A stretch of DNA of 64,000 nt from Chloroflexota bacterium (GCA_013388845.1 JACAEN010000026.1:101328-165327); one strand, 5' to 3'; shown: positions 5,169 through 42,320, counted from the stretch's first letter. The notes: generated by a model not told the origin, from the letters alone. Numbers and translations are program-made.

Positions 5169-7709
5169 ATGTATAGGAGGTGGTCTACGAGCAAGTCAAG
5201 ATTTTTGATAGCCTTGGGTGTTATCTTTGCTATGGTGCTGCCATCTTTGATTGTGCTTATACCGGCGAACACTGCCCAGGCTCAGCTTGCTAATACTCCG
5301 TGGCCTATGTTCGGCTGGAATCTGCAGCACACCAGCAGAAGCCCTTACACGGGTCCTGAGGTACCGGTACTGAAGTGGAGCTTCACCACAGAGGGGACCA
5401 TCACTTCTTCCCCCGCCATAGGAGCTGATGGCACTATCTACGTGGGCTCTTCCGATAATAAGCTCTATGCTATAAACCCCGACGGCACCCTGAAGTGGAG
5501 CTATGACACCTTCAGGGATGTAGAGTCTTCCCCAGCCATAGGTACTGATGGCACTATCTATGTGGGCTGCAATTATATGTGGATCTATGCCATAAACCCG
5601 GATGGCACCTTCAAGTGGAAATATGAGGCAAGTGGTGCTGTCTTATCTTCCCCTGCTATAGGGGGTGATGGCACCATCTATGTGGGCTCTAATGATAAGG
5701 ATCTCTATGCCATAAACCCCGGCGGCAGCTTAAAGTGGAACTTCACTACAGGTGGCGCTATCGTATCCTCCCCTGCTATAGGTGTTGATGGCACCATCTA
5801 TGTGGGCTCTAACGATGGTAAGCTCTACGCTATAAACCCCACCAATCACAGCAACCCGAAGTGGAGTTTCGCTACCGGGGGCGCACTCCAGTCTTCCCCT
5901 GCTATAGGAGCCGATGGCACCATCTATGTCGGCTCTTTTGATAACAATCTCTATGCAGTAACCTCCAATGGTACCTTGAAGTGGAGTTTCACCACGGGCG
6001 GTGCTGTCAAGTCATCTCCGGCTATAGGAGCTGATGGCACTATTTATGTGGGCTCTAATGATAAGAAACTCTATGCTATAACACCCGACGGCACTTTGAA
6101 ATGGAGCTTGCCGACGGGTGGCGCGGTCGAGTCCTCCCCGGCCATAGGAGCCGATGGCACTATTTATGTAGGCTCTGATGATAGTAAGCTCTATGCCGTA
6201 AGCCTCGATGGCACCCTGAAGTGGAGCTTAATCACAGGGGGTGCTGTGAAGTCTTCTCCGGCTATAGGGGCTGATGGCACCATCTATGTGGGCTCTGATG
6301 ATAACAAGCTCTATGCCATTACGGAGGGTCCTTGGCCCAAGTTTCGCCAGAACCCGCAAAATAGGGGCAGAAGTTCTTACACCGGTCCTACGGTACCGCA
6401 ACTGAAGTGGAGCTTGCTCACTGAAGGTTGTGTCGAATCCTCCCCTGCCATAGGGGCTAATAGCACCATCTATGTGGGCTCTAATGATAATAAGCTCTAC
6501 GCCATAAACCCCGATGGCACTTTGGAATGGAGCTTCGCCACAGGTGGCGCCGTCAAGTCTTCTCCGGCTATAGGAGCTGATGGCACCATCTACGTGGGCT
6601 CTAATGATGGCAAGCTCTATGCTATAAGATCCGACGGTACTCTGAAGTGGAGCTTCGCCACAGGAGGTGCTGTCGGCTCCTCCCCTGCCATAGGGGCTAA
6701 TAGCACCATCTATGTGGGCTCTAATGATAATAAGCTCTACGCCATAAACCCCGACGGCACACTGAAGTGGAGATATACCACAAGTGGCGCTGTCAGTTCC
6801 TCCCCTGCCGTAGGAGCCAATGGCACCATCTATGTCGGCTCCTCTGATAATAAGCTCTACGCCATAACCCCCGCTGGCACTTTGGAGTGGAGCTACGCCA
6901 CAGAGGGTGCTGTCGTCTCTTCCCCCGCTATAGCGGCTGATAGCACTATCTATGTTGGCTCCTGTGATAAGAAGCTGTACGCCATGAACCCCGATGGCAC
7001 TCTGAAATGGAGATACGCCACAGAGGGTGCTGTCGTCTCTTCCCCAGCCATAGGAGCTGATGGCACCATCTATGTGGGCTCCTCTGACGATAGACTCTAC
7101 GCCATAAAGCCCGGTGGTGCTCTGAAATGGAGATACGGCACAAAGGGCGATATCGAGTCTTCCCCCGCTATAGGAGCTGATGGCACCCTCTATGTTGGCT
7201 CTACTGATAAGAAGCTCTATGCCATAGCCTCCGGTGGCACCCTGAACTGGAGCTTCGTCACCGGCGGCCAGGTCCGCTCTTCCCCCGCTATAGGAGCTGA
7301 TGGCACCATCTATGTTGGCTCTTCTGATAATAAGCTCTGTGCAATTGTGGAAGGAGAGGCTAACTCGCCGTGCTTCATCGCCACCGCAGCCTACGGCACC
7401 CCCATGGCCGAGGAAATACAAATCCTACGTGAGTTCCGAGATGAATATCTGCTGACCAACCCTGCAGGGCAAGCTCTAGTCGACATTTATTACAAGGTTA
7501 GCCCACCGATCGCCCAGTTCATAACAGGGCATCCCAGCCTGAAGCCAATGGTGAGGGCTGGGCTGGTGCCGGCTGTAGTCATGAGCACCGTAGCCGTCAA
7601 CACTACTCCGGCTGAAAAAATAGCTATTGTGGGCTTGCTGGTGCTGGTTTGCGTGGCAGCGGTTGTTTGGGCAACAAGGTGGCAAAACAGAGGCCCAAAG
7701 TATACCTGA
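5169..7709 (+). CDS. Secreted/surface PQQ-like beta-propeller repeat protein (two tandem ~8-bladed propellers) with a C-terminal CFIATAAYG-motif domain plus TM anchor
   Basis: Signal peptide. About 16 repeats of …SSPAIGADGTIYVGSxDxKLYAIxPDGTLKWSF…. The linker …PWPKFRQNPQNRGRSSYTGPTVPQLKWS echoes the N-terminal …PWPMFGWNLQHTSRSPYTGPEVPVLKWS, indicating an internal duplication. C-terminus is CFIATAAYGTPMAEEIQILREFRDEYL…IAIVGLLVLVCVAAVVWATRW. Confidence 0.8.
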   Translation: MYRRWSTSKSRFLIALGVIFAMVLPSLIVLIPANTAQAQLANTPWPMFGWNLQHTSRSPYTGPEVPVLKWSFTTEGTITSSPAIGADGTIYVGSSDNKLYAINPDGTLKWSYDTFRDVESSPAIGTDGTIYVGCNYMWIYAINPDGTFKWKYEASGAVLSSPAIGGDGTIYVGSNDKDLYAINPGGSLKWNFTTGGAIVSSPAIGVDGTIYVGSNDGKLYAINPTNHSNPKWSFATGGALQSSPAIGADGTIYVGSFDNNLYAVTSNGTLKWSFTTGGAVKSSPAIGADGTIYVGSNDKKLYAITPDGTLKWSLPTGGAVESSPAIGADGTIYVGSDDSKLYAVSLDGTLKWSLITGGAVKSSPAIGADGTIYVGSDDNKLYAITEGPWPKFRQNPQNRGRSSYTGPTVPQLKWSLLTEGCVESSPAIGANSTIYVGSNDNKLYAINPDGTLEWSFATGGAVKSSPAIGADGTIYVGSNDGKLYAIRSDGTLKWSFATGGAVGSSPAIGANSTIYVGSNDNKLYAINPDGTLKWRYTTSGAVSSSPAVGANGTIYVGSSDNKLYAITPAGTLEWSYATEGAVVSSPAIAADSTIYVGSCDKKLYAMNPDGTLKWRYATEGAVVSSPAIGADGTIYVGSSDDRLYAIKPGGALKWRYGTKGDIESSPAIGADGTLYVGSTDKKLYAIASGGTLNWSFVTGGQVRSSPAIGADGTIYVGSSDNKLCAIVEGEANSPCFIATAAYGTPMAEEIQILREFRDEYLLTNPAGQALVDIYYKVSPPIAQFITGHPSLKPMVRAGLVPAVVMSTVAVNTTPAEKIAIVGLLVLVCVAAVVWATRWQNRGPKYT

Positions 7710-7908: not shown

Positions 7909-8562
7909 GTGCTAAAATTTCAATTGATGCCAGACATACATTATGTTATCCGTCCTATGAAGTACGAGGATATTCCCCAGGTAGTCCAGATTGATCGAGA
8001 GGCTTTCCCTGGTGAGTGGGTGTTTCGCTCTCAATCAGCCTATAAGCAGGACTTGGACAACCCGTCCGTTCGCTACATAGTAGCTTATAAGAGGAGAGGT
8101 GTCCCAGAATCTGGGGAAGAAGCGACGTGGAAACTGCCTTGGTTCAAGCGGCTCTTCAGTGGTGAGCGCCGTCTTAACGTATTGGAAAACATAGTTGGTT
8201 TTTCGGGATTCTGGATGATGTTGCAAGAGGCACATATCATTGCCATTGGCGTCAGAAACAGTTATCGTCAGCTGGGCATAGGAGAAGGTTTGCTCATCGC
8301 AACCATTGAACTGGCACAGATATTGAATGCTAATGTCGTTACTCTGGAAGTGCGTGCTTCTAATAGAATAGCTCAGGAACTTTATAAGAAGTATGGCTTC
8401 CAGGTAATGGGGAGGCGCCTGAGGTATTATTCAAGCGATGGAGAGGACGCCATAATCATGAGCACGGATAATATTATCTCTTTGCCATTTCAAGCATCTT
8501 TTCAGCAGTTGAAAAAAGCCCACGCTCAAGGACACCCCGAGATTCTTTATCAGGTCTGCTAA
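7909..8562 (+). CDS. rimI: GNAT-family N-acetyltransferase (RimI-like)
   Basis: …IAIGVRNSYRQLGIGEGLL…LEVRASNRIAQELYKKYGF acetyl-CoA-binding motifs of GNAT/RimI. The exact start is ambiguous. Confidence 0.65.
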   Translation: MLKFQLMPDIHYVIRPMKYEDIPQVVQIDREAFPGEWVFRSQSAYKQDLDNPSVRYIVAYKRRGVPESGEEATWKLPWFKRLFSGERRLNVLENIVGFSGFWMMLQEAHIIAIGVRNSYRQLGIGEGLLIATIELAQILNANVVTLEVRASNRIAQELYKKYGFQVMGRRLRYYSSDGEDAIIMSTDNIISLPFQASFQQLKKAHAQGHPEILYQVC

Positions 8563-9662
8563 CTATATTTATTCAGGATAGCCTTAAAGGAATCTATAAC
8601 AAACGCTAGCTGCTCCTTATCAGCGGCAAAGGTGGACAGTTTGAAAGACCGGGCTAAGCCTGGCTGTGGTCCCCAAATTCCTCTTTCCTTTAGTTCTTTG
8701 TAGAGGAAATAGCCCCTCTCTCGAACCCGCTGGGATATTTCGTAGAGCACCGGGGCTTCAAAGTGCAGTAAGTCATGCCTGTGCGGCTTTTCTCCCAATT
8801 GCTTAAAGCCTAATTTCTCAAGTTCCGTGGAAAACCACTGCGCTTTAGATACCTGCTCCTCCCAATGCTGAACTCTTTCTTTTACCTGGGGAAAGGAAGC
8901 CATGAGTGTTATCAGAGGAACACCCCTTACGGTACAGCCAAGGAGTTCAATCTCTTTATTGCTATGTTTGCCCGATTTTCTCAACACTATCTCCTCCCAT
9001 TTCTTCTTCATTCCCAGTACCCCCACAGGGCCGGCCGAGGCCATGCTTTTGTGGCCGCTGCCAATAATGAAATCAGCCCCTATCTCCTCCATATTTACAG
9101 GCATTCTGCCCACAGCGTATGCCCCGTTAAGGATGTAAGGGACATTGTGTTCTTGAGCGATTTCTCCTAACCTTCTGGCGTCGGGAAGATTCCCGTAGTT
9201 GCCGTCTGGGTAAGTTAATAAGATTAGTTTAGGGGCGTGTTTTTTGATGAGCGGTTCATATTCGTTAACGTCGACTCTAAATTCCGGATGTCCGGAATGA
9301 GGCACTTCGATTATGTTCAATCCCGCCCTTTCTGCAGCGACGACCGTTGTATAATGCCTGTTGGCATCAACAAGAATCGAATCCCCGGGCTTAGCTAGTG
9401 AGTGCATCACCATGAATTTAGCCTCTCGAGCTCCATGGGTTATAGTGGCAACTTCACAGCCCAAAAACTGAGGTAGGAGCTTCTGGACAAAGTCTCGGAT
9501 GGGGGGATTGGTTATATTACATAAAACTCCCTGGCAAAAGTCGCACACGGAATATCCATCCCCAAATTCCACTAAAGCCTCCTTGGCAGCCTCTGTAAGC
9601 ATGCCACCTGTCTGTAAAGGCATCAGGTTGATAAGCCCTTTATGTTCCCTTTGCAATGACAT
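8559..9662 (-). CDS. pscS: O-phospho-L-seryl-tRNA:Cys-tRNA synthase (SepCysS), PLP-dependent
   Basis: 367 aa. N-terminal CxxC (GYSVCDFCQG), PLP-lysine motif GSGHKSM and a third conserved Cys (LLGCTVRG). These fit the SepCysS active-site Cys triad and its fold family. Same operon as the SepRS gene. Confidence 0.7.
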   Translation of the reverse strand: MSLQREHKGLINLMPLQTGGMLTEAAKEALVEFGDGYSVCDFCQGVLCNITNPPIRDFVQKLLPQFLGCEVATITHGAREAKFMVMHSLAKPGDSILVDANRHYTTVVAAERAGLNIIEVPHSGHPEFRVDVNEYEPLIKKHAPKLILLTYPDGNYGNLPDARRLGEIAQEHNVPYILNGAYAVGRMPVNMEEIGADFIIGSGHKSMASAGPVGVLGMKKKWEEIVLRKSGKHSNKEIELLGCTVRGVPLITLMASFPQVKERVQHWEEQVSKAQWFSTELEKLGFKQLGEKPHRHDLLHFEAPVLYEISQRVRERGYFLYKELKERGIWGPQPGLARSFKLSTFAADKEQLAFVIDSFKAILNKYS

Positions 9663-9876
9663 TATCCCAATTCCTGACCTTTATTACTTGAGGCAATCGC
9701 GAAATCCTAGGATCAGACTTGGCCAATTCTAACAAGAACTCGAACAAAAATCCAAATATTGAGTTCTGATTGTCAGTTGGCCATCAACAACGAGAAGACG
9801 CTTTCAGAGGTGTTTGAGTTCACCTAGTCAAACGAGGCATGTGATCTCACAAATTTAGGAGCACCGGGCTAGCGGG

Positions 9877-10212
9877 TCACTGTGTGAGTCTCATTATTAG
9901 AAGCGCTATTCCCAGATAAGTGACGATGCCGGTAATGAGCGAGCCCGCCAAGCCTATACGAGGCAGAAGAAACAATACAGCAACGACGTAGAGCACCCAC
10001 GGTGGCAATAGTATCAGCATACTTCTGGTATAAGAAACAGCAGCATCTGTTCCGCTAGCCAGATATATACTGCAGATAGTTACCACGCTAATAGCGGGGA
10101 AGAAGGCAATAAATGCCGCAAGCAAACTTTTTGCGTGACTTCCAAAATACGTTGCGGCGGAGACTACGGCTCCACCAATCACAAAATATACTGGCAACAT
10201 CTTGATGTCCAT
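9877..10212 (-). CDS. Small multi-pass membrane protein of unknown function between the SepRS and SepCysS genes
   Basis: 111 aa, four hydrophobic helices, same strand as its neighbours. Confidence 0.45.
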   Translation of the reverse strand: MDIKMLPVYFVIGGAVVSAATYFGSHAKSLLAAFIAFFPAISVVTICSIYLASGTDAAVSYTRSMLILLPPWVLYVVAVLFLLPRIGLAGSLITGIVTYLGIALLIMRLTQ

Positions 10213-10259
10213 AGTGTTCCCTCACATTACAATATCTTGTTATCCTGGTATATTAGTAT

Positions 10260-11768
10260 TTAGAGTTTCTTCACATCTATAGTCACGAATACTGCCCCAC
10301 CGACCCCTATTTTCTTCTGCTGCCCTTCAATATGCTGTCGCACAGCTTCGGGAATCTGGAGATTAAGGTCAGAAAGATGTCTTACCCCCTTCACCTGATA
10401 AGTTAAGTTATCATTGCTGCTTTCTATTGCGGCGGCGGCACCCATGGCGATAGCACGCATGTAGTTTATCCCTGTATATACTCCCGAAGGCACAATATCG
10501 CTATAGATAGTGCCATTGGCCACGCAGATTTCGTTGAAACCAGCCGGACCGATTAATCTCTTGCCAGCCTCTGTTTCCACAACTTTCACCTCGATAGACT
10601 TATCTTTCCAGGCCACAAACTCGCAGGGGGCAATCTCATCTTTATGCTTTCGGGCGGTTTCCTCAATCGCTTTGGCTATTCTCCGTCCCCGAGCTGTCTG
10701 AGGGCTGGCGATATAGGTAATAGATTTGGCTATCTCTTCGTCAGAATACTCGACTACGGAGAATTGGGGGTATGCCAGTTTCCTCACATCGTTTATTTCA
10801 TAAATAAGCATCCCCAGTCGCTCAATGCCAAACCCAGCGTTGAACACAGGGTATTTAATGTCGAAATTAGCCAGGGCCACAGGTGAATACATGCCAATGT
10901 CCGCTATCTCGAGCCAAGTGCCCTTATATTTGACGAAGACTTCCTGCTCCTGTCCGGGGGCATAGTACTTGGATGTTGCTATTTTGGTCTCGAATTTGAT
11001 GTCGGGAAAGCCATACTGTTGCATGATTTTCGTTGTTATCGTCCTTCCTGCTTCTAGAGACATCTCGGGGTCCATGACTACAATGGACGCTGAGTGGTGC
11101 ACTCGCAAATGGTGCGCATCTTCCCTTTGCTCGTTGCGATATCTGGGACCCACGGAGAATAGGGCGATGGGGAAGCTAGCTTTATCCTGTAGTGCCGCCA
11201 AGGTATGAAACCAGGTCGCTGTCATGTGGCTTCTTAAGGTCTTGTTGGATGGCGCTGGCTTTAGCTCTTTCAACTCGGGGAAAACTTTATCCAGGAGCTC
11301 CGTAGCTTGGTAATCCGTGATGCTCAGTCCGGCGATGAGATCTTCGATGAGATTATCGGCTTCGATTTCCCCCTTTTTGTAGTTTCTCAAAATGGTCTGC
11401 AATTTTTCAATGTCAATTTCTTCGCCTATTTTCTTTATCTCGGCTATTCTTTTGGCACTCAGCCCGATGTCGGGGCGGGGCAGTTCAGCTAAGTAAAAAG
11501 CCCTGTCCAATATAACCCGGGCTTCTGGCCCATACTGCTTGACCACATCAGTATCGGGCAATATAGTAAGGTTCTCGACCTCATCGAAACCGAGGTCTAA
11601 TAGAATCCGGCGAGATTTCTCAATCAATTCGCGAACAAGATGAGGTTTGCCTTTCCTTGTTAGGGTGATTTCTGTGCCTGCGGGGACAAGCTTCCCCGTA
11701 GCTACCCAAGCTTCAGTAAAGTTGCTTTTTGCCTCGGACTTTATTTCACCTGTATCGAAGGTTGCCAT
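10260..11768 (-). CDS. sepS: O-phosphoseryl-tRNA synthetase (SepRS), class II aaRS of the PheRS-alpha lineage
   Basis: 502 aa. Class II motifs …TLRSHMTATWF…, …GPRYRNEQ…, …GFGIERLGML… (motif 3). The N-terminal and C-terminal extensions resemble SepRS rather than PheS. A SepCysS gene lies two genes downstream. Confidence 0.7.
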   Translation of the reverse strand: MATFDTGEIKSEAKSNFTEAWVATGKLVPAGTEITLTRKGKPHLVRELIEKSRRILLDLGFDEVENLTILPDTDVVKQYGPEARVILDRAFYLAELPRPDIGLSAKRIAEIKKIGEEIDIEKLQTILRNYKKGEIEADNLIEDLIAGLSITDYQATELLDKVFPELKELKPAPSNKTLRSHMTATWFHTLAALQDKASFPIALFSVGPRYRNEQREDAHHLRVHHSASIVVMDPEMSLEAGRTITTKIMQQYGFPDIKFETKIATSKYYAPGQEQEVFVKYKGTWLEIADIGMYSPVALANFDIKYPVFNAGFGIERLGMLIYEINDVRKLAYPQFSVVEYSDEEIAKSITYIASPQTARGRRIAKAIEETARKHKDEIAPCEFVAWKDKSIEVKVVETEAGKRLIGPAGFNEICVANGTIYSDIVPSGVYTGINYMRAIAMGAAAAIESSNDNLTYQVKGVRHLSDLNLQIPEAVRQHIEGQQKKIGVGGAVFVTIDVKKL

Positions 11769-11811
11769 GGGTGCAAAGTATACCTCAAATACCCTGAAGG
11801 TAGCTAGCCTT

Positions 11812-12078
11812 CTACTGCTTCTTTGCTGGAGTGTCTCCTACCCTCTCTACCTCGATGGTGCATTCTGTAACTAATGCGGCAATTGCCCCCAGCGCAGCCA
11901 GCACCGGAGCTGCTAGCGCTGTTACCGCCGCTACGCCAACGCCTACTGTCAGAGGGATGTCTATCAGAGGACGTCCCTTGTGTATTAACCGAACTCTCCT
12001 GATATTTCCTTGATGCACTAGCTCCTTGATTTTCTCAACTACTTCACATCCGTCTACAGTGAACTTCTCAGTTGGCAT
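11812..12078 (-). CDS. DUF4342-like small protein
   Basis: …IDIPLTVGVGVAAVTALAAPVLAALGAIAALVTECTIEVER… is a characteristic DUF4342 core. Confidence 0.55.
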   Translation of the reverse strand: MPTEKFTVDGCEVVEKIKELVHQGNIRRVRLIHKGRPLIDIPLTVGVGVAAVTALAAPVLAALGAIAALVTECTIEVERVGDTPAKKQ

Positions 12079-12092
12079 TGTCTTTGACCTCC

Positions 12093-12596
12093 TTACTTGC
12101 TAATGAGCCCCGTCAGATATTGCTTCAGCATGTCTAGTGCCGCATCTGCAGCGTCCCGCTTGTTTTCCTCGCGGTTTCCCGGGAGGACATGTTTTTGACA
12201 CAAGCTCTTACCTTCGGCGGCCAGGCTTAGGTAAAACAAACCCACCGGTTTTTCAGGAGTACCACCTGAAGGACCAGCAATCCCCGTATCGGAGACGCAT
12301 ATGTCCACTTTCAAGAGCTTCCTGCCACCTTGAGCCATCTCTCGAGCTGTTTGCTCGCTCACGGCACCATATTTTTTAATAGTGGCCCTTCTTACCCCCA
12401 GCAAGGCAATTTTCACTTCGTTGTTGTAGGCTACTATAGAGCCCTTGAAGTAGTCCGAACTGCCGGGCACATTGGTTATCCTGTCCGCTATCCTGCCGCC
12501 GGTCGCTGACTCCACAGTGCCGATGGTCAGGAATTTTCCCGTCTTGGCCTGGTATTCCCTTATTAGCCGGGCGATTTCTGCTTCCACTCTCGCCAT
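12093..12596 (-). CDS. pncC: CinA C-terminal domain protein (PncC-type NMN amidohydrolase)
   Basis: …LTIGTVESATGGRIADRITNVPGSSDYFKGSIVAYNNEVK… is the CinA C-terminal signature. Confidence 0.8.
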   Translation of the reverse strand: MARVEAEIARLIREYQAKTGKFLTIGTVESATGGRIADRITNVPGSSDYFKGSIVAYNNEVKIALLGVRRATIKKYGAVSEQTAREMAQGGRKLLKVDICVSDTGIAGPSGGTPEKPVGLFYLSLAAEGKSLCQKHVLPGNREENKRDAADAALDMLKQYLTGLISK

Positions 12597-12637
12597 TGTT
12601 GGTTAATTCTAGCAGATTTCCTTGCTATAATTCAGTA

Positions 12638-13417
12638 ATGGCTGAATTTAGCGACACAATTACCTTTCTGGGCACTGCCGGTGCCCGCTTCATCGTGGTT
12701 CGCCAGTTTCTGGCCTCTGGAGGTGCCTGGCTTAAGCTGGGCAACGCTCAAATACTCCTTGACCCCGGTCCTGGCTGCTTGGTTCAGGTTGCCAAGAGAA
12801 AGCTCGATGCTACGAAACTCGACGCTATCATCTTATCTCATAAGCATTTAGACCACAGCGGGGATATTAACATCATGATTGAAGCCATGACCGACGGAGG
12901 CACCAAGAGGCGAGGCATGGTCTTTGCTCCCGCCGATGCCCTGAATCAAGACCCTGTTGTTTTGTCCTATTTGCGGTCTTATCTTCAGGATATACAAGTT
13001 CTAACTGAAGGTGGGAGTTATAAAGTTAGCGATATTTCCTTCAAGACGCCCGTCAGGCATAAGCATCCCGTGGAAACCTATGGTTTTATCTTCCAAACGC
13101 CGCGGCATACTTTCTCCTGGATTATTGATACTAGATATTTTGAAGATCTGGCCAGTCATTATGAAGGCGATTTGCTGATTATCAATGTGGTCCGCTTAAA
13201 GCCCGGAGCTCCTCTGGACCATTTGTCTCTTCCTGAAGCGCGGAGCATAATCAAGCAGGTAAAGCCTAAGGCTGCCATTCTTACCCATTTTGGCATGACC
13301 ATGTGGCGGGCTAAACCCTGGGAGTTGGCTAAGAAACTGAGCGAAGAAACTGGGATTTCGGTAATCGCCGCCAGGGACGGCATGACATTCGACCTGGCAC
13401 AGTTAGACAGCCCATAA
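12638..13417 (+). CDS. MBL-fold metallo-hydrolase
   Basis: MAEFSDTITFLGTAGA… and the HxHxDH motif (ILSHKHLDHSGD). Confidence 0.75.
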   Translation: MAEFSDTITFLGTAGARFIVVRQFLASGGAWLKLGNAQILLDPGPGCLVQVAKRKLDATKLDAIILSHKHLDHSGDINIMIEAMTDGGTKRRGMVFAPADALNQDPVVLSYLRSYLQDIQVLTEGGSYKVSDISFKTPVRHKHPVETYGFIFQTPRHTFSWIIDTRYFEDLASHYEGDLLIINVVRLKPGAPLDHLSLPEARSIIKQVKPKAAILTHFGMTMWRAKPWELAKKLSEETGISVIAARDGMTFDLAQLDSP

Positions 13418-13465: not shown

Positions 13466-14524
13466 TCACTTAGGCAGGAAGGTTTTGAGTAAATTCCACG
13501 AAGCCTCTGGCCTCAGTTCCCAGACATATGAAGTATCAACCACATCCGGGTTGTTGCATTGCCAGCATCCCTTGGTCATATTTGCCACCTCGCGACGGTC
13601 CCAGTTTTTCATTATCTCATCGAATGGGGATGTTCTCACATTTCCGTAAGGTCTATCATGGTTGAAACAGTTCGTTACGTTGCCTTCCGGCGTCACGGTT
13701 ACAAAAACAAAAGGCGCACGACAAACATAAGGCCTCATATTTAGCAAGTATCTGTGCAGATATGTTCGAGAGTTATTTATGGGATAGCCCCTCTTTTTCA
13801 GGTCAAGTAATTCTCTGGCTACTTGCTGCTCTGACTCCCGCGATGCCAGAGCTTCTTTGTTCGTCTCTCCGGTATCTCTGGCAATTCCTTCCTTGGCCGG
13901 GCAGACCCAGAGCGATACGCTGAGAGAGCGAGCAAGCTCTGCCATTTGCCCCATCACTTTCTCATTCCCTCGATGCAGGAGACAGTTGATGACAATCTTC
14001 TTGGGCGAGTTCATCCTCTTTAAGGTCTCTATGCCCTCGATAGCTTTCGCGAAGAGACCGGGCATGCCTCGGAAGGAATCGTGCCCCTTGCTTTCGGGAT
14101 AATCCAGTGAGACTATAATGCACCGGACTTCTTTGGCGATTTCATGCGCCCTGTCTGGTAGAAGGAGTCCGTTGGTGATTACAGTCGTCATCATTCCATT
14201 TTCGCGGGAAGAACGGCAGAGCTGGCCAATGTCCTGGCGCAAGAGGGGTTCTCCACCCCATATCGCATTTGCTATAAATCCTGCATCTTTGGCGCCACGA
14301 TAGAGGTGTTCGATGGCGCTTGTTTCCAGTTCGTCTGCTTTGTTATCACGCCAGAGACATGTCGGGCACTGGCAATTGCATCGTCCTGTGACCAGATGTG
14401 AGAGAAAAAACGGGCCTCGCCTGCCGGAGCGACTTGCCAGCAGAGTTCTGATGAAGCGGGCGATATCGCCCCAATCCCAGCGTGCACCCGAATCTCGTTG
14501 CTTTTCTAGCATGGCATGCACCAC
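13466..14524 (-). CDS. Radical SAM enzyme with C-terminal SPASM/twitch Cys cluster
   Basis: CxxxCxxC (GRCNCQCPTC). Further Cys-rich C-terminus (…VCRAPF…NCFNHD…GCWQCNNPD). Confidence 0.75.
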   Translation of the reverse strand: MVHAMLEKQRDSGARWDWGDIARFIRTLLASRSGRRGPFFLSHLVTGRCNCQCPTCLWRDNKADELETSAIEHLYRGAKDAGFIANAIWGGEPLLRQDIGQLCRSSRENGMMTTVITNGLLLPDRAHEIAKEVRCIIVSLDYPESKGHDSFRGMPGLFAKAIEGIETLKRMNSPKKIVINCLLHRGNEKVMGQMAELARSLSVSLWVCPAKEGIARDTGETNKEALASRESEQQVARELLDLKKRGYPINNSRTYLHRYLLNMRPYVCRAPFVFVTVTPEGNVTNCFNHDRPYGNVRTSPFDEIMKNWDRREVANMTKGCWQCNNPDVVDTSYVWELRPEASWNLLKTFLPK

Positions 14525-14653
14525 CCCTCGTACATTATGCTAAATCAACCCCCAAAAATCTTCTACTTTTTGGAGACCCGATAGGTTCGAATTTCGGATT
14601 TACAGATTTCCACGGGGATCGCGAGATTTTGGCGGTTGGATTCAGTAGAATGA

Positions 14654-14781
14654 GAGCTTCTTGGCAACGACATATTTTCCCAGAGGGTCCCCCCTCAAGT
14701 ATCGTCTGCGCTGGAGCGTTTCACTTCCGTGTTCGGGATGGGAACGGGTGGTTCCACTCCGCTAGAGTCACCAAGAAGCTC
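14654..14781 (-). rRNA. rrf: 5S ribosomal RNA, orphan (no 23S rRNA adjacent)
   Basis: Minus-strand sequence GCTTCTTGGTGACTCTAGCGGAGTGGAACCACCCGTTCCCATCCCGAACACGGAAGTGAAACGCTCCAGCGC…GTTGCCAAGAAGC aligns with the bacterial 5S consensus (CCCATGCCGAACTCAGAAGTGAAACGCCGTAGCGCC). Helix I terminal pairing is GCTTCTTGG/CCAAGAAGC. Confidence 0.8.
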
Positions 14782-14961
14782 TCTACTATAGTATACCGTG
14801 TTTCGGGAAAAATACGCAAGCCTGTATGCATAGACTTTCAAAACATCCAGTTGCTATTCTGAGTCCTTCGCTTGTTTGTTGTCACTCTGACTCTGAGTGA
14901 AGTGGAAAGGAATAATCTAATTGACGAGCCCAAATATGTATAATGCTGGCGATATTTCGAG

Positions 14962-15561
14962 ATGACGCAGGGCAATCTGAACAGAGAAGGTAGCAGTTCA
15001 TCTGTTAACGTGCTTTCTTCTGTGCTGAGGATCTTGGATGCCGAGAACCGGCTGATCGAGCGTGCTGACCAAAAGGCAATATCACTGCTCTCCGCTCTCG
15101 GCGTGTTTATGGTCTTCTTCATCGTTTACCATCGCGTCATCCCGATTAACCTGTTTACGGTTATACTATTGTCAATATACTTCGCCGTTTCTTTGCTGGC
15201 TATAGTGAGCCTCATCCTGGCAGTGCGTCCCAGGATTCGCATGGTTGAGGAGGAGACAGGAGACGCGGATAAAGCAGCCGCATGTGAGCCGGCCTTCTTC
15301 GTGGGAATCTGCAAATTCCCGATTTTGTCAGCTTACAGACAGGCTCTTCAGGATATGATGAAAGATGAAGCATCGATTGTCAATGTCTACACCAGGCAGA
15401 TCTTTGGCCTGGCTCGGGTCAACGCAGCCAAGTACAGAAATATCCAGCGTGCTGTCCTTCTGGTCATTATCGCATTGGCGGTGGAATTGGCTCTCGTGGC
15501 TTACCTGTTTATCTATTATCACGCCCAGGGGGCGACACTGCTGCCGCCGATTACTGGCTAG
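14962..15561 (+). CDS. Hypothetical membrane protein (N-terminal cytoplasmic helix, two adjacent TM helices, helical cytoplasmic segment, C-terminal TM helix)
   Basis: 199 aa ORF with clear TM segments. No recognisable catalytic motif and a weak RBS. Confidence 0.4.
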   Translation: MTQGNLNREGSSSSVNVLSSVLRILDAENRLIERADQKAISLLSALGVFMVFFIVYHRVIPINLFTVILLSIYFAVSLLAIVSLILAVRPRIRMVEEETGDADKAAACEPAFFVGICKFPILSAYRQALQDMMKDEASIVNVYTRQIFGLARVNAAKYRNIQRAVLLVIIALAVELALVAYLFIYYHAQGATLLPPITG

Positions 15562-16038
15562 GATTTGCATTTTTTCGACGAGGCTTGCTCTCAAAGATTA
15601 CTGTCTCTCCCCCTCAGGATAAGAGCTTTCTTCAAATTCCCCCTTAAAGGTGAGAAAACCGTAGTGCGAGGCTCCTGCCCGCCAGAGCTTGGCAGGCAGG
15701 TCAGCCTCGCTCCAGAGAGAGGATAAGAGGGTGCCAGTGGAGCTGGCCACGTCCTTCAATTTCGTGCTCTTGACAACTCCCCCTCTTAGGATAAGAGGGG
15801 GTTGGGGGAGTTACGACTTTCCAATGCTCATAACCCCCTTTAATACCCCTTACCCTAAGGGGGATAACGGGGAAAGAGCCCTAAATCCTAAACATTTAGC
15901 GCCGTGCACGACCTTGAAAGGTCGCACTACAATCGTGCTCGGAATTTGCCGACTAAGAAGCGGAATCTTGGGAAAACTCACCCCTGCCCTCCTGTGCTAT
16001 AATGGTTTCCAAATCTCATAGAGAGGAGGTTTGTTCTC

Positions 16039-16833
16039 ATGGATTGGGGCATGCAGAATCGTCTGGCGCAATTAGTTCAAGCGGATGGCCGCTGTTTATT
16101 TTTGCCTGTGGATCATGGCTATTTTCAGGGTCCTATCAAGAAACTGGAGAACCCGCGCCAAACTCTGGAGCCCCTTCTCCCTTACACCGATGCTATTTTC
16201 ATTACCAGAGGGGTTTTGAGATCGTGTGTTGACCCTGACAGGGCGAAACCAATCATCCTGAGGGTCTCTGGCGGCACCAGCATAAAAGGAAAAGACCTGG
16301 CTCACGAGGGGATAACCACCTCAATGGAGGAAGCCATCCGACTCAATGCCTGTGCGGTGGGCATCTCCATCTTCGTGGGAACTGATTATGAGCATGATTC
16401 CTTGCTAAATCTAGCTAAGCTTGTTGACGAAGGGGAAAGGCATGGCATCCCGGTAATGGCTGTCACCGCCGTGGGCCGGGAACTGGAGAAGCGCGAGTCC
16501 CGCTATCTGGCTCTGTCCTGTCGTATTGCTGCTGAGTTGGGTGCTCGATTGGTTAAGACTTATTACTGTGACAAATTCGAGAGGGTTACCCGCGGCTGCC
16601 CTGTTCCCGTGGTCATTGCTGGCGGGCCAAAAGTTCCTACTGGATTTGAAGTTCTTAAATTTGTGTATGACGGCCTTCAGAAAGGCGCCATCGGTGTGAA
16701 TCTAGGGAGAAACATCTGGCAAAATGAGCACCCCGTGGCCATGATCAGAGCCATGCGCGCCATCATCCATGAGAAGGCCACCCCTGAGCAAGCCCAAGAG
16801 CTATACGATAGCGTAAAGGGTGGAACACCGTAA
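16039..16833 (+). CDS. Class I fructose-bisphosphate aldolase of the DhnA/FbaB (archaeal-type) family
   Basis: …LFLPVDHGYFQGP…VSGGTSIKGKD…KTYYCD…VVIAGGPK… aligns with the DhnA-type aldolase / ADH synthase family. RBS GAGGAGG upstream. TATAAT at 15998-16003. Confidence 0.8.
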   Translation: MDWGMQNRLAQLVQADGRCLFLPVDHGYFQGPIKKLENPRQTLEPLLPYTDAIFITRGVLRSCVDPDRAKPIILRVSGGTSIKGKDLAHEGITTSMEEAIRLNACAVGISIFVGTDYEHDSLLNLAKLVDEGERHGIPVMAVTAVGRELEKRESRYLALSCRIAAELGARLVKTYYCDKFERVTRGCPVPVVIAGGPKVPTGFEVLKFVYDGLQKGAIGVNLGRNIWQNEHPVAMIRAMRAIIHEKATPEQAQELYDSVKGGTP

Positions 16834-22017: not shown

Positions 22018-23382
22018 CTATCTCTTATATTTCCATCTTGTTCCTTGAGGGGTATCTTCAATGGTTACTCCTAAATTGGCTAACCCACTCCTAATTTTAT
22101 CGGCTAGCTGCCACTGCTGGTTTTGCCGTAAATCATCCCTAGTGGATACCAAGAGACTGATGAATGCTTCTGCGTCCGGTGTAACTTGTGTCTTTCCTTT
22201 TAAAGTAAGACCTAGGATGCCTGCTAGCTTGGATAAGGTATGCTGCGCTTTAGTTATATTTACACCTTGTTCTGCGCCACGGTTTATTTCCTTCATCAAT
22301 TCGAAGAGGACGGCTATTGCCTGTGCAGTATTGAAGTCGTCGTCCATAGCTTCGACAAATTTCTGCTCGGAGGGCTCCGCCTTGAGTATAGTAGCTCCCT
22401 TGTCTGCATTAGCTCGATGGGTCAATGCCCAACGCAATCTTTCTGCAGCCCTCTCGTTTGCTTCCAGAGCCTCCTCACTGTAGATGAGTGGATTCCGATA
22501 ATGCGAGCTAAGGATAAAAAGGCGAATAGCATCGGAACTAAAGCGACCCAAAGCGTCTTTGATGCTTACCAAATTACCTGTACTCTTACTCATTTTTTGC
22601 TTATCCTGCTGCATCAACCCATTATGTAGCCAGTATCGGACAAAAGGAGTCTCCTGGGTAAAACTTTCTGATTGAGCTATTTCGTTCTCGTGATGAGGAA
22701 AGACAAGGTCTTGCCCGCCACCATGGATATCAATAGTGTCGTCGAGGTGCTTTAACGCCATAGCACTACATTCAATGTGCCACCCTGGCCTACCCTCCCC
22801 CCAAGGGCTCTCCCAGAAAGGCTCACCAGGTTTTGACGCTTTCCATAAAGCGAAATCTAACGGATACTCTTTCTTTTCTTGATAGTTGCTAGCTTTAGGA
22901 ATCATCTCTGGCAGGCTCCGGTGACTTAGTTTGCCATAGTGGGGAAAATTCCTGACGCGGAAGTAAATACTTCCCTCAGACTCGTAAGCGTAGCCCTTAG
23001 CTAGCAGACCTTGGATAATTTCAATAATTTTTGGTATTTCCTCGCTTGCTTTGGGATAGACATCGGCCCGCTCTACATTCAATGCATCCATGTCGGAAAA
23101 ATATCGGTCAACATATTTGTTGGCTAGCTCTGCTGGTGGAATTCCTAACTGGTTAGCACGCTCTATGATCTTATCGTCGATGTCGGTAAAGTTTTGTACG
23201 TGTTTAACTTTATAGCCCTTGAATCTCAGGTAGCGTTTGATCACATCAAAGATTATGTAAGTCATGGCGTGCCCAATATGGCTTTCGTCGTAAGCAGTAA
23301 TGCCACAGACATACATGGTTACCACTTCGCTGCGGGGATGAAAATCATCCTTTCGTCCGGTTAGGGTATTAAACACTTTCAT
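22018..23382 (-). CDS. cysS: Cysteinyl-tRNA synthetase (class I)
   Basis: HIGH (ESHIGHAMTY), the zinc-binding Cys, and KMSKS (KMSKSTGN). 454 aa. Confidence 0.9.
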   Translation of the reverse strand: MKVFNTLTGRKDDFHPRSEVVTMYVCGITAYDESHIGHAMTYIIFDVIKRYLRFKGYKVKHVQNFTDIDDKIIERANQLGIPPAELANKYVDRYFSDMDALNVERADVYPKASEEIPKIIEIIQGLLAKGYAYESEGSIYFRVRNFPHYGKLSHRSLPEMIPKASNYQEKKEYPLDFALWKASKPGEPFWESPWGEGRPGWHIECSAMALKHLDDTIDIHGGGQDLVFPHHENEIAQSESFTQETPFVRYWLHNGLMQQDKQKMSKSTGNLVSIKDALGRFSSDAIRLFILSSHYRNPLIYSEEALEANERAAERLRWALTHRANADKGATILKAEPSEQKFVEAMDDDFNTAQAIAVLFELMKEINRGAEQGVNITKAQHTLSKLAGILGLTLKGKTQVTPDAEAFISLLVSTRDDLRQNQQWQLADKIRSGLANLGVTIEDTPQGTRWKYKR

Positions 23383-23535: not shown

Positions 23536-23979
23536 ATGAAACTTTCTACTAGGGGACGATACGGAGTCAGGGCACTTTTGGATTTAGCTCTTCATTCTTG
23601 TGAAGGAACCGTGCTACTAAGGGATATTGCCCGAAGGCAGGAGATTTCACTGCCCTACCTAGAGCACGTGATCACTCCCCTAGTAGCTGCTGGTCTGATG
23701 AAGACCACCCGCGGGCCTCGGGGCGGTGTTTTGCTACTTAAGTCTCCTGCAGAGATTAAGCTCAGTGAGGTGATTGGATTTCTGGAAGGCTCCATTGCCC
23801 CGGTGGATTGTGTTGATAATCCCGATGTGTGTCGCCGCTCTGCTTTTTGTGTTACCCGGGATATCTGGGGCGAGGTGAAGGAGGCCGTGCATCAGGTCTT
23901 AGATTCTATAACCTTACAAGACCTGGTTGAGCGTCAGAGGGAAAAGGGGCAAACAGGTACAGGGATGTATTACATTTGA
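23536..23979 (+). CDS. Rrf2-family transcriptional regulator (CymR/IscR-like)
   Basis: MKLSTRGRYGVRALLDLA… is a typical Rrf2 wHTH. It heads an operon containing cysK and cysE. Confidence 0.85.
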   Translation: MKLSTRGRYGVRALLDLALHSCEGTVLLRDIARRQEISLPYLEHVITPLVAAGLMKTTRGPRGGVLLLKSPAEIKLSEVIGFLEGSIAPVDCVDNPDVCRRSAFCVTRDIWGEVKEAVHQVLDSITLQDLVERQREKGQTGTGMYYI

Positions 23980-24064
23980 ATAGCCTTAGCCTCGGGAAAT
24001 GTGTTCATAAAACGTGGGTAGGCATTTTAGAGATTATTTTGTTTATGAATCGGAGGAAAGTGAA

Positions 24065-25078
24065 ATGGCAAAGATAACTCAAAACGTGGAGAGGCTTAAA
24101 TACAAGACGATAGAGCTACCGAAGCTAACCAGAGGGATAGCCAGAGATTCTACCGAGTTAATTGGGAATACACCTCTGGTCAGGCTGAACCGGGTGACTG
24201 AGGGGGTGAAGGCCGAGGTGGTGGCTAAGCTTGAATCCTTTAATCCCCTGGGAAGCGTAAAGGATAGAATTGGAGTATCTATGATTGTTGATGCTGAAGA
24301 GAAGGGGCTGATCGGCAAAGATACGGTGATTGTCGAACCAACTAGTGGCAATACTGGAATTGCCCTAGCTTTTGTCTGCGCTGCCAGGGGATACAGGCTT
24401 ATTCTCACCATGCCTGATACTATGTCTGTGGAGCGGAGGCAGCTTCTGTCTATTTTGGGAGCTGAGCTGGTCTTGACCCCTGGGGCGGAAGGGATGCCGG
24501 GAGCGGTGAAGAAAGCGGAACAATTGGTGGCGGAAAATCCCGATTATTTTATGCCCCAACAGTTTAATAATCCGGCAAATCCTGAGATACACCGACTGAC
24601 CACAGCAGAAGAAATCTGGAGGGATACTGGAGGTGAAGTAGATATTCTGGTTGCTGGTGTAGGAACGGGAGGGACAATCACAGGAGTGGCTGAGGTGATA
24701 AAGAAAAGGAAACCCGAATTTAAAGCTATAGCTGTTGAGCCTGCTGCTTCCCCAGTTCTTTCTGGGGGCAAGCCTGGCTCTCACAAAATTCAGGGTATCG
24801 GCGCGGGATTCATCCCCCAAATTCTCAGGCTAGATCTGGTTGATGAGATTATCAGGGTTACCAATGAGGATGCCGGGGCTATGGCCAGGAGATTAGCTAA
24901 AGAGGAAGGGATATTGGCTGGCATATCCTCAGGTGCAGCAACTTGGGCAGCGTTGGAGGCGGCCAAAAGAACAGAAAACAAAGACAAGCTTATCGTGGTA
25001 GTTTTGCCTGACACGGGAGAGCGCTATCTGTCCACCTGGCTTTTCCAAGAACTTTACCAAGCGGCATCGGGTCCGTAA
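24065..25078 (+). CDS. cysK: Cysteine synthase A / O-acetylserine sulfhydrylase (CysK/MccA family)
   Basis: …IGNTPLVRL…SVKDRIG…[12 protein letters not shown]…[10 protein letters not shown]… motifs. RBS GGAGGAAAG before the ATG at 24065. N-terminal extension of about 20 aa. Confidence 0.85.
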
Positions 25079-25151
25079 AAAGTGGAATGTATTACACGCT
25101 GAGCTGGAGAAATTTATCTACAGCCTAGCCAAAAAGCGAAAGGAGGAGTAA

Positions 25152-25955
25152 ATGAAGTTTTCAGAAATATCGGAAAAACAGGTTACGAAGGCGATCATAT
25201 CAGAGTTCAGCAGAGAATTTGAGGATTACATCGAAACTGATGTAATCGTAGTAGGTGCCGGACCTAGCGGGCTTATTGCCTCAAAAGAACTCGCGGAGAA
25301 GGGCATAAAAACGCTCCTTATCGAGAGCAACAACTACCTCGGTGGAGGCTTTTGGATCGGTGGCTATCTAATGAATAAGATAACACTGAGGGCTCCTGCT
25401 CAGGCGATTCTGAATGAAATTGGAGTCCCCTATAAAGAGGCAGAAGGGGGATTGTATGTGGCAAATGGACCACATGCATGCTCTAAGTTAATTGCCGCCG
25501 CTTGTGACGCCGGCGTTAAGGTATTAAGCATGACGAAGTTCGATGATGTGGTGGTAAGGGAAAACCGTGTCTGTGGGGTGGTCATCAACTGGACGCCTGT
25601 ATCAGCACTTCCGAGGGCAATCACCTGCGTCGACCCAATTGGTATTGAATCAAAACTTGTGATTGATGCCACGGGACACGATGCTGCAGTTGCTCGCTCG
25701 CTCGAAGAGCGAGGTCTGGTGAATATCAAAGGGCTTGGCGCCATGTGGGTTGCACAATCAGAGGACGCGGTTCTTGAGTATACAAAAGAGATATACCCGG
25801 GTCTGATTGTAACAGGAATGGCGGTTGCCACCACATTTGGTCTTCCCAGGATGGGTCCAACTTTTGGCGCTATGCTCTTCTCAGGAAAGAAGGCTGCAAA
25901 AGCTGCTCTGGAGCTCTTATCAAAGGAACAGTCTCTAGTCGGCATCACCTCTTAA
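25152..25955 (+). CDS. thi4: Thi4-family thiazole synthase, paralog 1 (Cys at the putative sulfur-donor position: …AITCVDP…)
   Basis: [14 protein letters not shown] motif and …[11 protein letters not shown]… give a full-length Thi4 alignment. Confidence 0.8.
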
Positions 25956-26006
25956 GAAGTATATCCCTACAAAAGCTAGTTGACAGGTAACAGGGAAAAA
26001 CGATTA

Positions 26007-26720
26007 ATGTTTAAAACGTTAAGAGAGGATATTCAAACGGTTTTTGCCAAGGACCCGGCAGCAAGGAGCACGCTGGAGGTCATCTTCTGCTATCCCGGCC
26101 TCCACGCCCTGTGGTTTCATCGTTTCAGCCATTTCTTATGGAGGCATAAGCTGCGATTTTTGGCGCGTCTACTCTCCCACTTTAATCGCTTCTTAACTGG
26201 CATCGAGATTCACCCTGGAGCTAGAGTTGGCCGGAGGTTCTTTATTGACCATGGGGCAGGGGTGGTTATCGGGGAGACAGCTGAGATTGGGGACGATGTC
26301 TTGCTGTATCAGGGGGCTGTCTTAGGGGGAACAACCTTAAGGAGGGGAAAACGCCACCCCACCATTGGCAATAACGTGGTGATGGGAGCTGGTGCGATAG
26401 CCCTAGGCGCTATTACGATCGGCGATAATGCCCGAATCGGTGCTGGCTCAGTGGTGGTAAAGTCGATACCGCCTGGGGCTACGGTGGTGGGAATTCCAGG
26501 AAGAATAGCAGAAGACCACCGAAAGCCGCTCATGGATTTGGAGCACGGTAACCTGCCTGACCCAGTGGCGGAAGCCATCAGGTTTGTCTTAAGGAAGCAG
26601 GACAGGTTAGAGGAACGCCTGAGAAAATTAGAGAGTGCTACTGGAATAGCATCTCTCGAAGAGGAGTTACAAGAGAAGCTAATGATAGAAGCAATATTCA
26701 GCCAGGGAGGGGGCATATGA
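26007..26720 (+). CDS. cysE: Serine O-acetyltransferase
   Basis: N-terminal SATase helix region ([15 protein letters not shown]…) and hexapeptide repeats ([26 protein letters not shown]…). The start is ambiguous; a TTG at 25980 is the alternative. Confidence 0.8.
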
Positions 26721-32541: not shown

Positions 32542-32606
32542 GCTTGAGTCTGTAATATCCTACTCGTGTTATAATTTGGTTCTAGGAGAAATATCAGGAG
32601 GACAAG

Positions 32607-32849
32607 ATGGTTAAGCGAAGAGTAAGGTTCACCTTTCCCCCAGAATTGATCAAGGAGCCCATCATTTACAAACTTGGCCAGCAGTTTGAGGTAGTGACCA
32701 ATATCCGCCGTGCCGATATAAATGGAGATAAGGGCTGGGTAGTTCTTGAGTTGGAGGGGGAAGGAGAAGATATCGAGCGTGGAATTGCCTGGGTAACGGC
32801 CAAGGGGGTGAGGGTCGACTCTGTCAGTGGCGACGTGGTGGAGGGCTAA
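32607..32849 (+). CDS. Standalone NIL-domain protein (80 aa)
   Basis: Homologous to the N-terminal domain of the NIL-ferredoxin at 47445: RRVRFTFPPELIKEPIIYKLGQQFEVVTNIRRA…WVVLELEGE… versus RRIVLHFPPNITGQPVVYRLVKDFGLTFNILKA…LLVMELSGE…. RBS CAGGAGG. Confidence 0.6.
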   Translation: MVKRRVRFTFPPELIKEPIIYKLGQQFEVVTNIRRADINGDKGWVVLELEGEGEDIERGIAWVTAKGVRVDSVSGDVVEG

Positions 32850-32870
32850 GAATATAGTGGGGAGATAGCT

Positions 32871-33881: not shown

Positions 33882-33936
33882 GTATGGGGCTTATCATTAG
33901 CACTTCGAGAATGCTAAAAGCAAAGAAAGAGTTAGA

Positions 33937-35384: not shown

Positions 35385-35386
35385 GA

Positions 35387-37955: not shown

Positions 37956-37956
37956 T

Positions 37957-38872: not shown

Positions 38873-38882
38873 GAGGTTAACG

Positions 38883-42316: not shown

Positions 42317-42320
42317 AAGA

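Follow-up and report, generated by a model that had tools for sequence, protein, structure and literature searches.

Introduction

A bacterial tRNA-dependent cysteine pathway, composed of SepRS, the O-phosphoseryl-tRNA synthetase, and SepCysS, the Sep-tRNA:Cys-tRNA synthase (Sep, O-phosphoserine), has been described in Chloroflexi (Mukai et al., 2017, PMC5424206; PMC8762117), and we examined here such a gene pair in a 64,000-nt stretch of DNA from a Chloroflexota bacterium (GCA_013388845.1 JACAEN010000026.1:101328-165327), referred to below as the window. The assayed Chloroflexi pair comes from Hot spring Yb1 (JGI24721J44947_10000937), whose genes 32 and 33, encoding SepRS and SepCysS, were synthesised and purified; SepRS formed Sep-tRNA-Cys and SepCysS formed Cys-tRNA-Cys, both in vitro and in E. 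coli (PMC5424206). The pair was active in vitro without any accessory protein, the SepRS charged tRNA-Cys bearing A37 or G37 with phosphoserine, and the SepCysS was a brown, Fe-S-containing pyridoxal phosphate (PLP) enzyme that works without SepCysE (PMC5424206). The same study named Chloroflexi bacterium RBG_13_51_36 as a SepRS carrier and found no SepCysS in complete genomes devoid of SepRS (PMC5424206). Two publications, of 2017 and 2022, cover the operon, the missing SepCysE, the in vitro activity and the co-occurring methanogen-type sulfur genes (PMC5424206, PMC8762117).

The locus in the window is this already known Chloroflexi/Dehalococcoidia SepRS-SepCysS operon and is ordinary for its lineage. 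Judging from its sequence, it is very probably a working copy of the bacterial tRNA-dependent cysteine pathway.

Identity of SepRS and SepCysS

An initial annotation of the window had proposed the two enzymes at the following positions:

10260-11768, minus strand, SepRS, 502 aa, O-phosphoseryl-tRNA synthetase of the bacterial (Chloroflexi) type
8559-9662, minus strand, SepCysS, 367 aa, Sep-tRNA:Cys-tRNA synthase of the clade-I/bacterial type

Both assignments were borne out. The 502-aa protein reached 447.5 bits against the sepS equivalog TIGR00470 (cut-off 380.65) and 87-88 bits against PheS models, so that the curated SepRS model was passed by a wide margin over PheS. Among PDB structures, Archaeoglobus fulgidus SepRS 2DU3 matched with 374 bits and the best PheRS-alpha with 52.8 bits, which favours SepRS over PheRS alpha or another class II aminoacyl-tRNA synthetase. 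The alignment with 2DU3 covered residues 4-498 of the query and extended up to A. fulgidus residue 530/534; the anticodon-binding domain at the C-terminus is thus retained, unlike in the SepRS-deltaC variants. Transfer of the A. fulgidus (Af) numbering through the printed alignments made it possible to map the active-site residues: H181, T183, S226, S228 and N310-A-G312 are equivalent to Af H186, T188, S231, S233 and N325-x-G327, and H181, T183, S228, N310 and G312 were invariant in 74 copies of the clade described below. The Asn-X-Gly motif (N310-A-G312) is therefore intact; it is reported to be fully conserved among true SepRS and to be changed in every degenerate SepRS-like protein described (PMC8762117). 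Also, the m1G37 motif at Af 444-451, including Ile444, is deleted and the residue that follows is D424. Such a deletion followed by Asp is the signature of bacterial SepRS, which do not read m1G37 (PMC5424206), and the enzyme therefore belongs to the bacterial and not to the archaeal subtype.

The 367-aa protein matched TIGR02539 with 543.9 bits (cut-off 365.25), the next-best family being the cysteine desulfurases (SufS models, at most 46 bits). In PDB, A. fulgidus SepCysS 2E7I gave 485 bits and cysteine desulfurases at most 43 bits. The protein carries the cysteine triad C40, C43 and C243 and the PLP-binding lysine K205, corresponding to Af C39, C42, C247 and K209, as well as the conserved R79, H103 and Y104, and the catalytic positions were invariant in 67-69 clade copies. 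A SepCysS was thus favoured over a generic aminotransferase or a selenocysteine lyase lacking the triad. The indels follow the bacterial/clade-I pattern, with a deletion of 4 aa near Af 140-147 and without the 8-aa insertion at Af 234/235. The protein starts where the aligned A. fulgidus SepCysS has its N-terminus, and there is no N-terminal fusion.

Distribution in Dehalococcoidia

The identical SepRS sequence is already present in NCBI as 'MAG: O-phosphoserine--tRNA ligase [Chloroflexi bacterium]' (MAG, metagenome-assembled genome). More than 1,100 protein clusters matched it at E<=1e-10, the top 120 being 87-92% identical. We collected 77 genome loci with 64-92% SepRS identity, all from Dehalococcoidia/Chloroflexota MAGs with one genome per GTDB species; the adjacency counts given below derive from these loci, with informative subsets of 63 or 64. 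In 64 of the 64 informative loci, SepCysS lay downstream of SepRS as the next gene of the pathway, with a median gap of 66 nt. The view that the pathway is typical of methanogens and rare in bacteria has thus to be qualified, as it is not rare in this class, where at least 77 species-level genomes carry the operon.

Identities of the window SepRS to sequences of the published alignment, computed against the supplement of Mukai et al. (2017; PMC5424206), were as follows:

Lake sediment b1, 90.7%
MTBE-degrading b1, 87.1%
Chloroflexi bacterium RBG_13_51_36 (our locus L017), 83.1%
Hot spring Yb1, 79.5%
'CG bacterium No. 3', 58.2%
'Ca. Parcubacteria' DG_74_2, 56.8%

Since its SepRS is 79.5% identical to the assayed Yb1 enzyme, the window pair is a close orthologue of the biochemically validated pair. 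Both genes are under strong purifying selection within a conserved two-gene core, the pairwise ratio of nonsynonymous to synonymous substitutions (dN/dS) being 0.066-0.082 for SepRS and 0.066-0.113 for SepCysS.

Proposed Pathway, tRNA-Cys and SepCysE

In the pathway that we propose, SepRS, a class II enzyme related to PheRS alpha, would attach O-phosphoserine to tRNA-Cys. SepCysS, with PLP bound to Lys205, would then eliminate the phosphate of the tRNA-bound Sep, and sulfur held at the Cys40/Cys43/Cys243 site, as a persulfide or Fe-S, would convert the tRNA-bound residue to cysteine. The outcome would be Cys-tRNA-Cys made without free cysteine and without the SepCysE adaptor. As the SepRS lacks the archaeal m1G37-reading motif, the ordinary bacterial A37 tRNA-Cys is expected to be accepted as substrate; it would be encoded elsewhere in the genome and presumably shared with cysteinyl-tRNA synthetase (CysRS). 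The two genes would be co-transcribed with those of CinA-C, DUF4342 and DUF3147 proteins, the latter three as lineage-specific passengers. The pathway would run in parallel to CysRS and CysK/CysE, with sulfide-based cysteine supply in an Fe-S-rich anaerobe as its likeliest role.

Neither a tRNA-Cys gene nor a SepCysE homolog had been noticed in the window at first sight, and our searches agree. ARAGORN detected no tRNA gene in the 64 kb, and no tRNA-Cys was linked to the operon in 60 Dehalococcoidia loci. Outside this clade, a scan of metagenome contigs, for which non-Dehalococcoidia SepRS were aligned, yielded 51 loci, and in 8 of these 51 a tRNA-Cys(GCA) adjoined SepRS (L088 at 2201-2272, L100 at 6727-6798, L119, L121, L122, L124, L130 and L131). 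Given this linkage in 8/51 outside loci and in 0/60 loci of the clade, the Dehalococcoidia system probably shares the housekeeping tRNA-Cys with CysRS. No open reading frame (ORF) resembling SepCysE or SepCysSn was found ahead of SepCysS, where the 214-nt spacer holds only a 35-aa ORF with a TTG start that overlaps the SepCysS start. PDB searches with the DUF4342 protein and with an 83-aa ORF of relatives (see below) showed no similarity to SepCysE chains. These results agree with the literature, according to which bacteria have no SepCysE and few of them a SepCysSn. Lack of SepCysE, and of a tRNA-Cys linked to the operon, has been published as normal for bacteria.

Parallel Cysteine Routes and Sulfur Genes

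The initial annotation had also placed a canonical cysS and cysK/cysE in the same window, and all three genes pass their equivalog cut-offs:

22018-23382, minus strand, cysS (CysRS), TIGR00435 532 bits, cut-off 340
23536-27859, plus strand, cluster divergent from cysS with an Rrf2 regulator, cysK, thi4, cysE and a gene of the cystathionine gamma-synthase/lyase family, a tRNA-independent cysteine route
24014-25078, plus strand, cysK, TIGR01139 479.7 bits, cut-off 350.95
25980-26720, plus strand, cysE, TIGR01172 245.5 bits, cut-off 210.65
45992-48737, plus strand, HcyBio (COG1900), NIL-ferredoxin and an ApbE-like protein, methanogen-type sulfide-assimilation genes

The CysRS motifs HIGH (residue 35) and KMSKS (residue 263) are intact. 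In the cysK/cysE cluster, the Rrf2 regulator matched TIGR00738 (129 bits) and thi4 scored 245 bits on TIGR00292, a thiazole synthase of the sulfide-dependent type; the Cys/Met PLP enzyme is a family match only, below equivalog cut-offs. CysRS homologues with 82-89% identity occur abundantly in these MAGs. We checked two relatives for contig sharing, which were found from the CysRS homologues as the 10-kb flanks of SepRS fell short, and in both of them CysRS and Rrf2-cysK-cysE lay on the contig of the SepRS operon (JAGHCA010000094.1, L139 with L013; JAUWYX010000002.1, L140 with L011). The redundancy of CysRS and cysK/cysE with the pathway is therefore not peculiar to the window. Methanogens are well known to have both synthetases side by side, which has been discussed in terms of Cys biosynthesis versus charging (PMC8762117).

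HcyBio matched PF01837 with 507 bits, NIL and 4Fe-4S domains were found in the NIL-ferredoxin, and the ApbE-like ORF (48012-48737) is 88% identical to an L140 gene annotated with PF27030 AbpE_bact. Co-occurrence of such sulfide-assimilation genes with SepCysS in Chloroflexi has been published (PMC5424206, Discussion).

Two further groups of sulfur-related genes were observed. At 31324-35806 there are a threonine-synthase-family protein with a Cys-rich (zinc-ribbon-like) N-terminal segment, ThiF, a weak ThiS-like protein of 94 aa, a class-V aminotransferase and NifU; instead of plain threonine synthesis, this group could serve to make a sulfur amino acid by way of a sulfur-carrier protein (thiocarboxylate). 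A sulfur/cofactor island at 36768-49714 contains a second class-V aminotransferase and NifU, DsrE, an S-adenosylmethionine (SAM) methyltransferase, an ArsP-type permease with a YHS domain, a second ThiF/ThiS pair, MOSC, FdhD, NadA, a second Thi4, HcyBio, NIL-ferredoxin, the ApbE-like protein and a DHO-dehydrogenase-family protein. The block formed by Thi4, HcyBio, NIL/Fer, ApbE-like and DHOdh is syntenic in L140.

Organization of the Operon

The genes that surround the two enzymes are the following:

7909-8562, plus strand, RimI-type GNAT acetyltransferase, TIGR01575 105 bits, cut-off 86.4
9663-9876, minus strand, 214-nt spacer between SepCysS and the DUF3147 gene
9877-10212, minus strand, putative DUF3147/'GlpM family' small membrane protein with four transmembrane helices, 111 aa
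11812-12078, minus strand, DUF4342 protein, 88 aa, whose C-terminal segment is hydrophobic and rich in Gly/Ala
12093-12596, minus strand, protein of the CinA-C/PncC-type nicotinamide-nucleotide amidohydrolase family, 167 aa, first gene of the cluster

All five minus-strand ORFs were located exactly at the coordinates first annotated, and their strand and order were likewise confirmed. The gaps between them, from SepCysS to CinA-C, are 214, 47, 43 and 14 nt, so that SepRS and SepCysS, on the same strand, are 598 nt apart. Their spacing, shared strand and conserved order point to co-transcription of the five genes as the operon that had been proposed. The GC content is even over the region (~47-50%), and a scan of the operon for promoter and terminator consensus sequences was uninformative, with counts no higher than the shuffle expectation. 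The rimI-type gene is convergent with SepCysS, overlaps its 3' end by 4 nt and sets the downstream boundary; this position is kept in most clade loci. At the other end, base 12596 is the start of the longest ORF for both CinA-C (minus strand) and a divergent gene of the metallo-beta-lactamase (MBL) fold (plus strand, TTG start), and therefore at least one of these starts must be set too far upstream. For the MBL gene, the ATG at 12638 is the probable start, and ~40 nt then remain for divergent promoters.

Lineage-Specific Neighbours

The CinA-C protein was recognized by PF02464 (175 bits) and TIGR00199 (141 bits, cut-off 68.9), and its gene is the direct upstream neighbour of SepRS or DUF4342 in 58 of the 63 clade loci, frequently at a distance of 14-37 nt. 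DUF4342 (PF14242, 97 bits; dN/dS 0.04-0.10) precedes SepRS in 29/63 loci, all with a SepRS identity of at least 78%. A PDB search with the DUF4342 protein gave nothing significant (the best hit, E=0.061, was an unrelated methyl-coenzyme M reductase chain), and our literature search on DUF4342 found no papers. The 4-helix protein covered Pfam DUF3147 (PF11345) over its full length but weakly (15.2 bits, E=0.029, below the gathering threshold of 23.6); its homologues, 63-90% identical, are labelled 'GlpM family' or 'DUF3147' by JGI and NCBI. The dN/dS of this gene was 0.125-0.233.

None of these three genes was found in the 51 SepRS loci outside the clade, where the nearest clades keep the SepRS-SepCysS adjacency. 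General partnership of CinA-C, DUF4342 or DUF3147 with SepRS was rejected on this basis, and the three are best read as lineage-specific neighbours.

A second variable slot was observed between DUF4342 and SepRS. Many relatives have there a conserved ORF of ~80 aa (83 aa) without match in Pfam or PDB:

L001, 5089-5340
L002, 866-1099
L011, 5677-5928
L138, 9643-9885

In several relatives, this slot holds on the opposite strand a channel of the FNT (formate/nitrite-transporter) family and a cNMP (cyclic nucleotide)-binding protein (in L011, 6153-7085 and 7102-7560, both minus strand). The corresponding gap in the window, of 43 nt, is without such genes.

An Insertion Slot between SepRS and SepCysS

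The initial annotation had described the 4-helix protein as inserted between the two enzymes, and this was confirmed by an alignment of the window with L068, which has the same insertion, and with L001, L008, L010 and L017, which have none. It turned out to be a clean insertion of ~0.5 kb that replaced the ancestral spacer of ~66 nt together with the first ~12 codons of SepCysS. SepCysS is therefore 367 aa long in the window and in L078-L081, and 379 aa long in L137 and L138; the N-terminus that remains matches that of A. fulgidus SepCysS. The 214-nt spacer arrived together with DUF3147. The arrangement is real, since it also occurs in four independent metagenome contigs. It is not a conserved part of the pathway; among the 64 genome loci, just 2 have DUF3147 between SepRS and SepCysS. 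Distant DUF3147 homologues were found next to NadE, next to RF-1/PrmC and after a PD-(D/E)XK nuclease; a fixed functional context for DUF3147 was rejected, as five look-ups led to four unrelated neighbourhoods. The 4-helix gene is thus a recent insertion limited to a sublineage and not a component of the pathway.

The spacer measures ~66 nt in 59/64 loci and holds cargo in the five others. In relatives, the counterpart of window positions 9663-10259 contains:

L068, DUF3147 alone
L003, 9506-12283, CDF cation-efflux exporter and SpoIIM-like membrane protein
L009, 9506-10849, CDF cation-efflux exporter
L022, 9521-10363, DUF4258/DUF2283 pair, toxin-antitoxin-like
L007, 9506-14813, CDF exporter, YeeE/YedE sulfur transporter (PF04143), class-V aminotransferase, Se/S-carrier protein (PF11823) and DUF3147

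In L007, a sulfur transporter, an enzyme of the cysteine-desulfurase type and a Se/S-carrier stand directly before DUF3147 and SepCysS. This cassette hints at a delivery of sulfur to SepCysS, but the cargo of the slot is heterogeneous and the sample tiny. In relatives, the spacer thus acts as an insertion slot; that its L007 cargo and DUF3147, if selected, form the physiological sulfur-delivery line to a bacterial SepCysS that has long been looked for seems to us very improbable. The cargo of the slot is a cheap lead, albeit at present a weak one, on the in vivo sulfur donor of SepCysS.

Weighing of the Interpretations

Some observations weigh against a working pathway. CysRS, CysK and CysE are all intact, so the SepRS pathway is not obviously essential; neither the window nor 60 related loci show a tRNA-Cys; and the 214-nt spacer with the loss of ~12 N-terminal codons could have altered the coupling of expression. 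Pfam by itself is ambiguous, since the 502-aa protein gives only the class II core (tRNA-synt_2d) shared within that class and the 367-aa protein only SepSecS/Aminotran_5. These matches would also suit a PheRS-alpha paralogue or a degenerate SepRS-like protein of other specificity, next to a generic class-V aminotransferase or selenocysteine lyase. We regard such a reading as practically untenable, given the equivalog scores (447 against 87 bits for SepRS versus PheS, 544 against 46 bits for SepCysS versus SufS), the PDB scores (374 against 53 and 485 against 43 bits, respectively) and the intact Asn-X-Gly motif, Cys triad and PLP lysine. The coexistence with CysRS (HIGH and KMSKS intact) and CysK/CysE, here and on one contig in two relatives, bears on another question, namely whether the pathway is maintained for a specialised task rather than for general Cys decoding, e.g., a dedicated tRNA-Cys isoacceptor or Cys biosynthesis under sulfide-rich or cysteine-poor conditions, with CysRS doing the bulk of the charging. 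Where both synthetases are present, SepRS may serve mostly in Cys biosynthesis, and isoacceptors are partitioned in some methanogens (PMC8762117, Discussion). However, no dedicated tRNA was linked in 60 clade loci although other clades link tRNA-Cys, and no sequence feature separates this idea from a general working pathway, of which it is a refinement rather than a different mechanism. We hold it to be possible but rather unlikely.

The accessory genes could in principle be functional, with CinA-C, DUF4342 and/or DUF3147 replacing the SepCysE adaptor or delivering sulfur and with the spacer recruiting sulfur-donor genes. The close upstream position of CinA-C (58/63 loci, often at 14-37 nt), the purifying selection on DUF4342 and DUF3147, the YeeE/YedE, class-V aminotransferase and Se/S-carrier genes just before DUF3147 and SepCysS in L007, and the FNT-family channel in the upstream slot of several relatives all argue for such a role. 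On the other hand, shared descent can explain the association, as the accessory genes occur in 0/51 outside loci, and the convergent rimI, which lies outside the operon, is equally conserved. DUF3147 sits in the slot in two genomes out of 64 and stands elsewhere beside NadE, RF-1/PrmC or a PD-(D/E)XK nuclease, and the slot also takes a CDF metal exporter and a toxin-antitoxin-like pair, so that its cargo is not consistently sulfur-related. Also, no resemblance in sequence to SepCysE was seen in the small proteins of the operon, and the published Chloroflexi pair worked in vitro without accessory protein. A functional role of these genes is therefore very improbable in our opinion. A working bacterial-type pathway, with these genes as lineage-specific neighbours, remains our preferred explanation.

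The extension of an 'archaeal' genetic-code system into bacteria was already made in 2017 and widened in 2022. What the locus adds to it is modest. It documents the wide spread of the operon, with 77 or more species-level genomes in Dehalococcoidia/Chloroflexota and upwards of 1,100 protein clusters. In the window, as in the two relatives, the SepRS pathway shares its contig with CysRS and CysK/CysE, which indicates a parallel route and not a replacement. Also, the slots of the operon are flexible and take up transport and sulfur-trafficking genes.

Other Observations in the Window

Upstream of the operon, a PycTM-type (Pycsar effector) membrane protein is encoded at 14962-15561 on the plus strand (Pfam 61.6 bits, PADLOC 56 bits). 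Its neighbours are a radical SAM/SPASM protein at 13466-14524 (minus strand), with a weak viperin-like match of 54 bits, and the MBL-fold hydrolase at 12596-13417 (plus strand), whose relatives show weak or faint matches to the Anti-Pycsar protein Apyc1. The same trio occurs in L078, and no nucleotide cyclase was seen near the PycTM-type gene.

The GC skew changes sign at ~14000-16500, with a cumulative minimum at ~14-15.5 kb, and gene orientation turns from mostly minus to mostly plus in the same interval; dnaN lies at 1018-2190. The skew switch suggests a nearby replication origin. E. coli-type DnaA boxes, with one mismatch allowed, were not clustered at 14-16.5 kb.

Beyond the rimI-type gene, positions 5169-7709 (plus strand) encode an 846-aa protein with ~20 near-identical repeats of ~40 aa ('SSPAIGADGTIYVGS.D.KLYAI'), which by eye resemble a beta-propeller or PQQ-like fold. 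The N-terminus is signal-like, the C-terminal segment 'CFIATAAYG' precedes a membrane helix, and a fragmentary homologue lies beyond rimI in several relatives.

Comparison with Known Systems

The locus shares with the Chloroflexi operon of Mukai et al. (2017) the order SepRS then SepCysS, the m1G37 deletion followed by Asp, the SepCysS indels and the Cys triad, as well as the absence of SepCysE and the co-occurrence of HcyBio/NIL-ferredoxin genes. It differs from it by the DUF3147 insert, present in the window and a small sublineage, and by a SepCysS shorter by ~12 N-terminal residues. The CinA-C and DUF4342 neighbours, and CysRS, CysK and CysE in Chloroflexi carriers, have no mention in PMC5424206 or PMC8762117: 'CinA' has zero occurrences in the main texts of both, and a term search of the supplement located the sole occurrence of CysRS in the archaeal section of the contig table.

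The archaeal SepRS-SepCysS(-SepCysE) transsulfursome of methanogens and Archaeoglobus (2DU3, 2E7I/2E7J, 3WKR, 5X6B/5X6C) has in common with the window the enzyme families, the catalytic residues and the two-step chemistry. However, the window is without SepCysE/SepCysSn and its SepRS is without the m1G37 motif (Af 444-451). Also, archaeal SepRS usually adjoins TRAX or endonuclease V and not SepCysS, whereas the SepRS of the window is paired with SepCysS.

Among bacteria, 'Ca. Parcubacteria' DG_74_2 and 'CG bacterium No. 3' likewise have a SepRS-SepCysS operon with a bacterial-type SepRS, 57-58% identical to that of the window. In our diverse sample of SepCysS, the triad was altered to C43Y in one locus and to C243H in one locus. 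The published SepCysS of Parcubacteria DG_74_2 lacks two of the three cysteines, whereas that of the window keeps all three.

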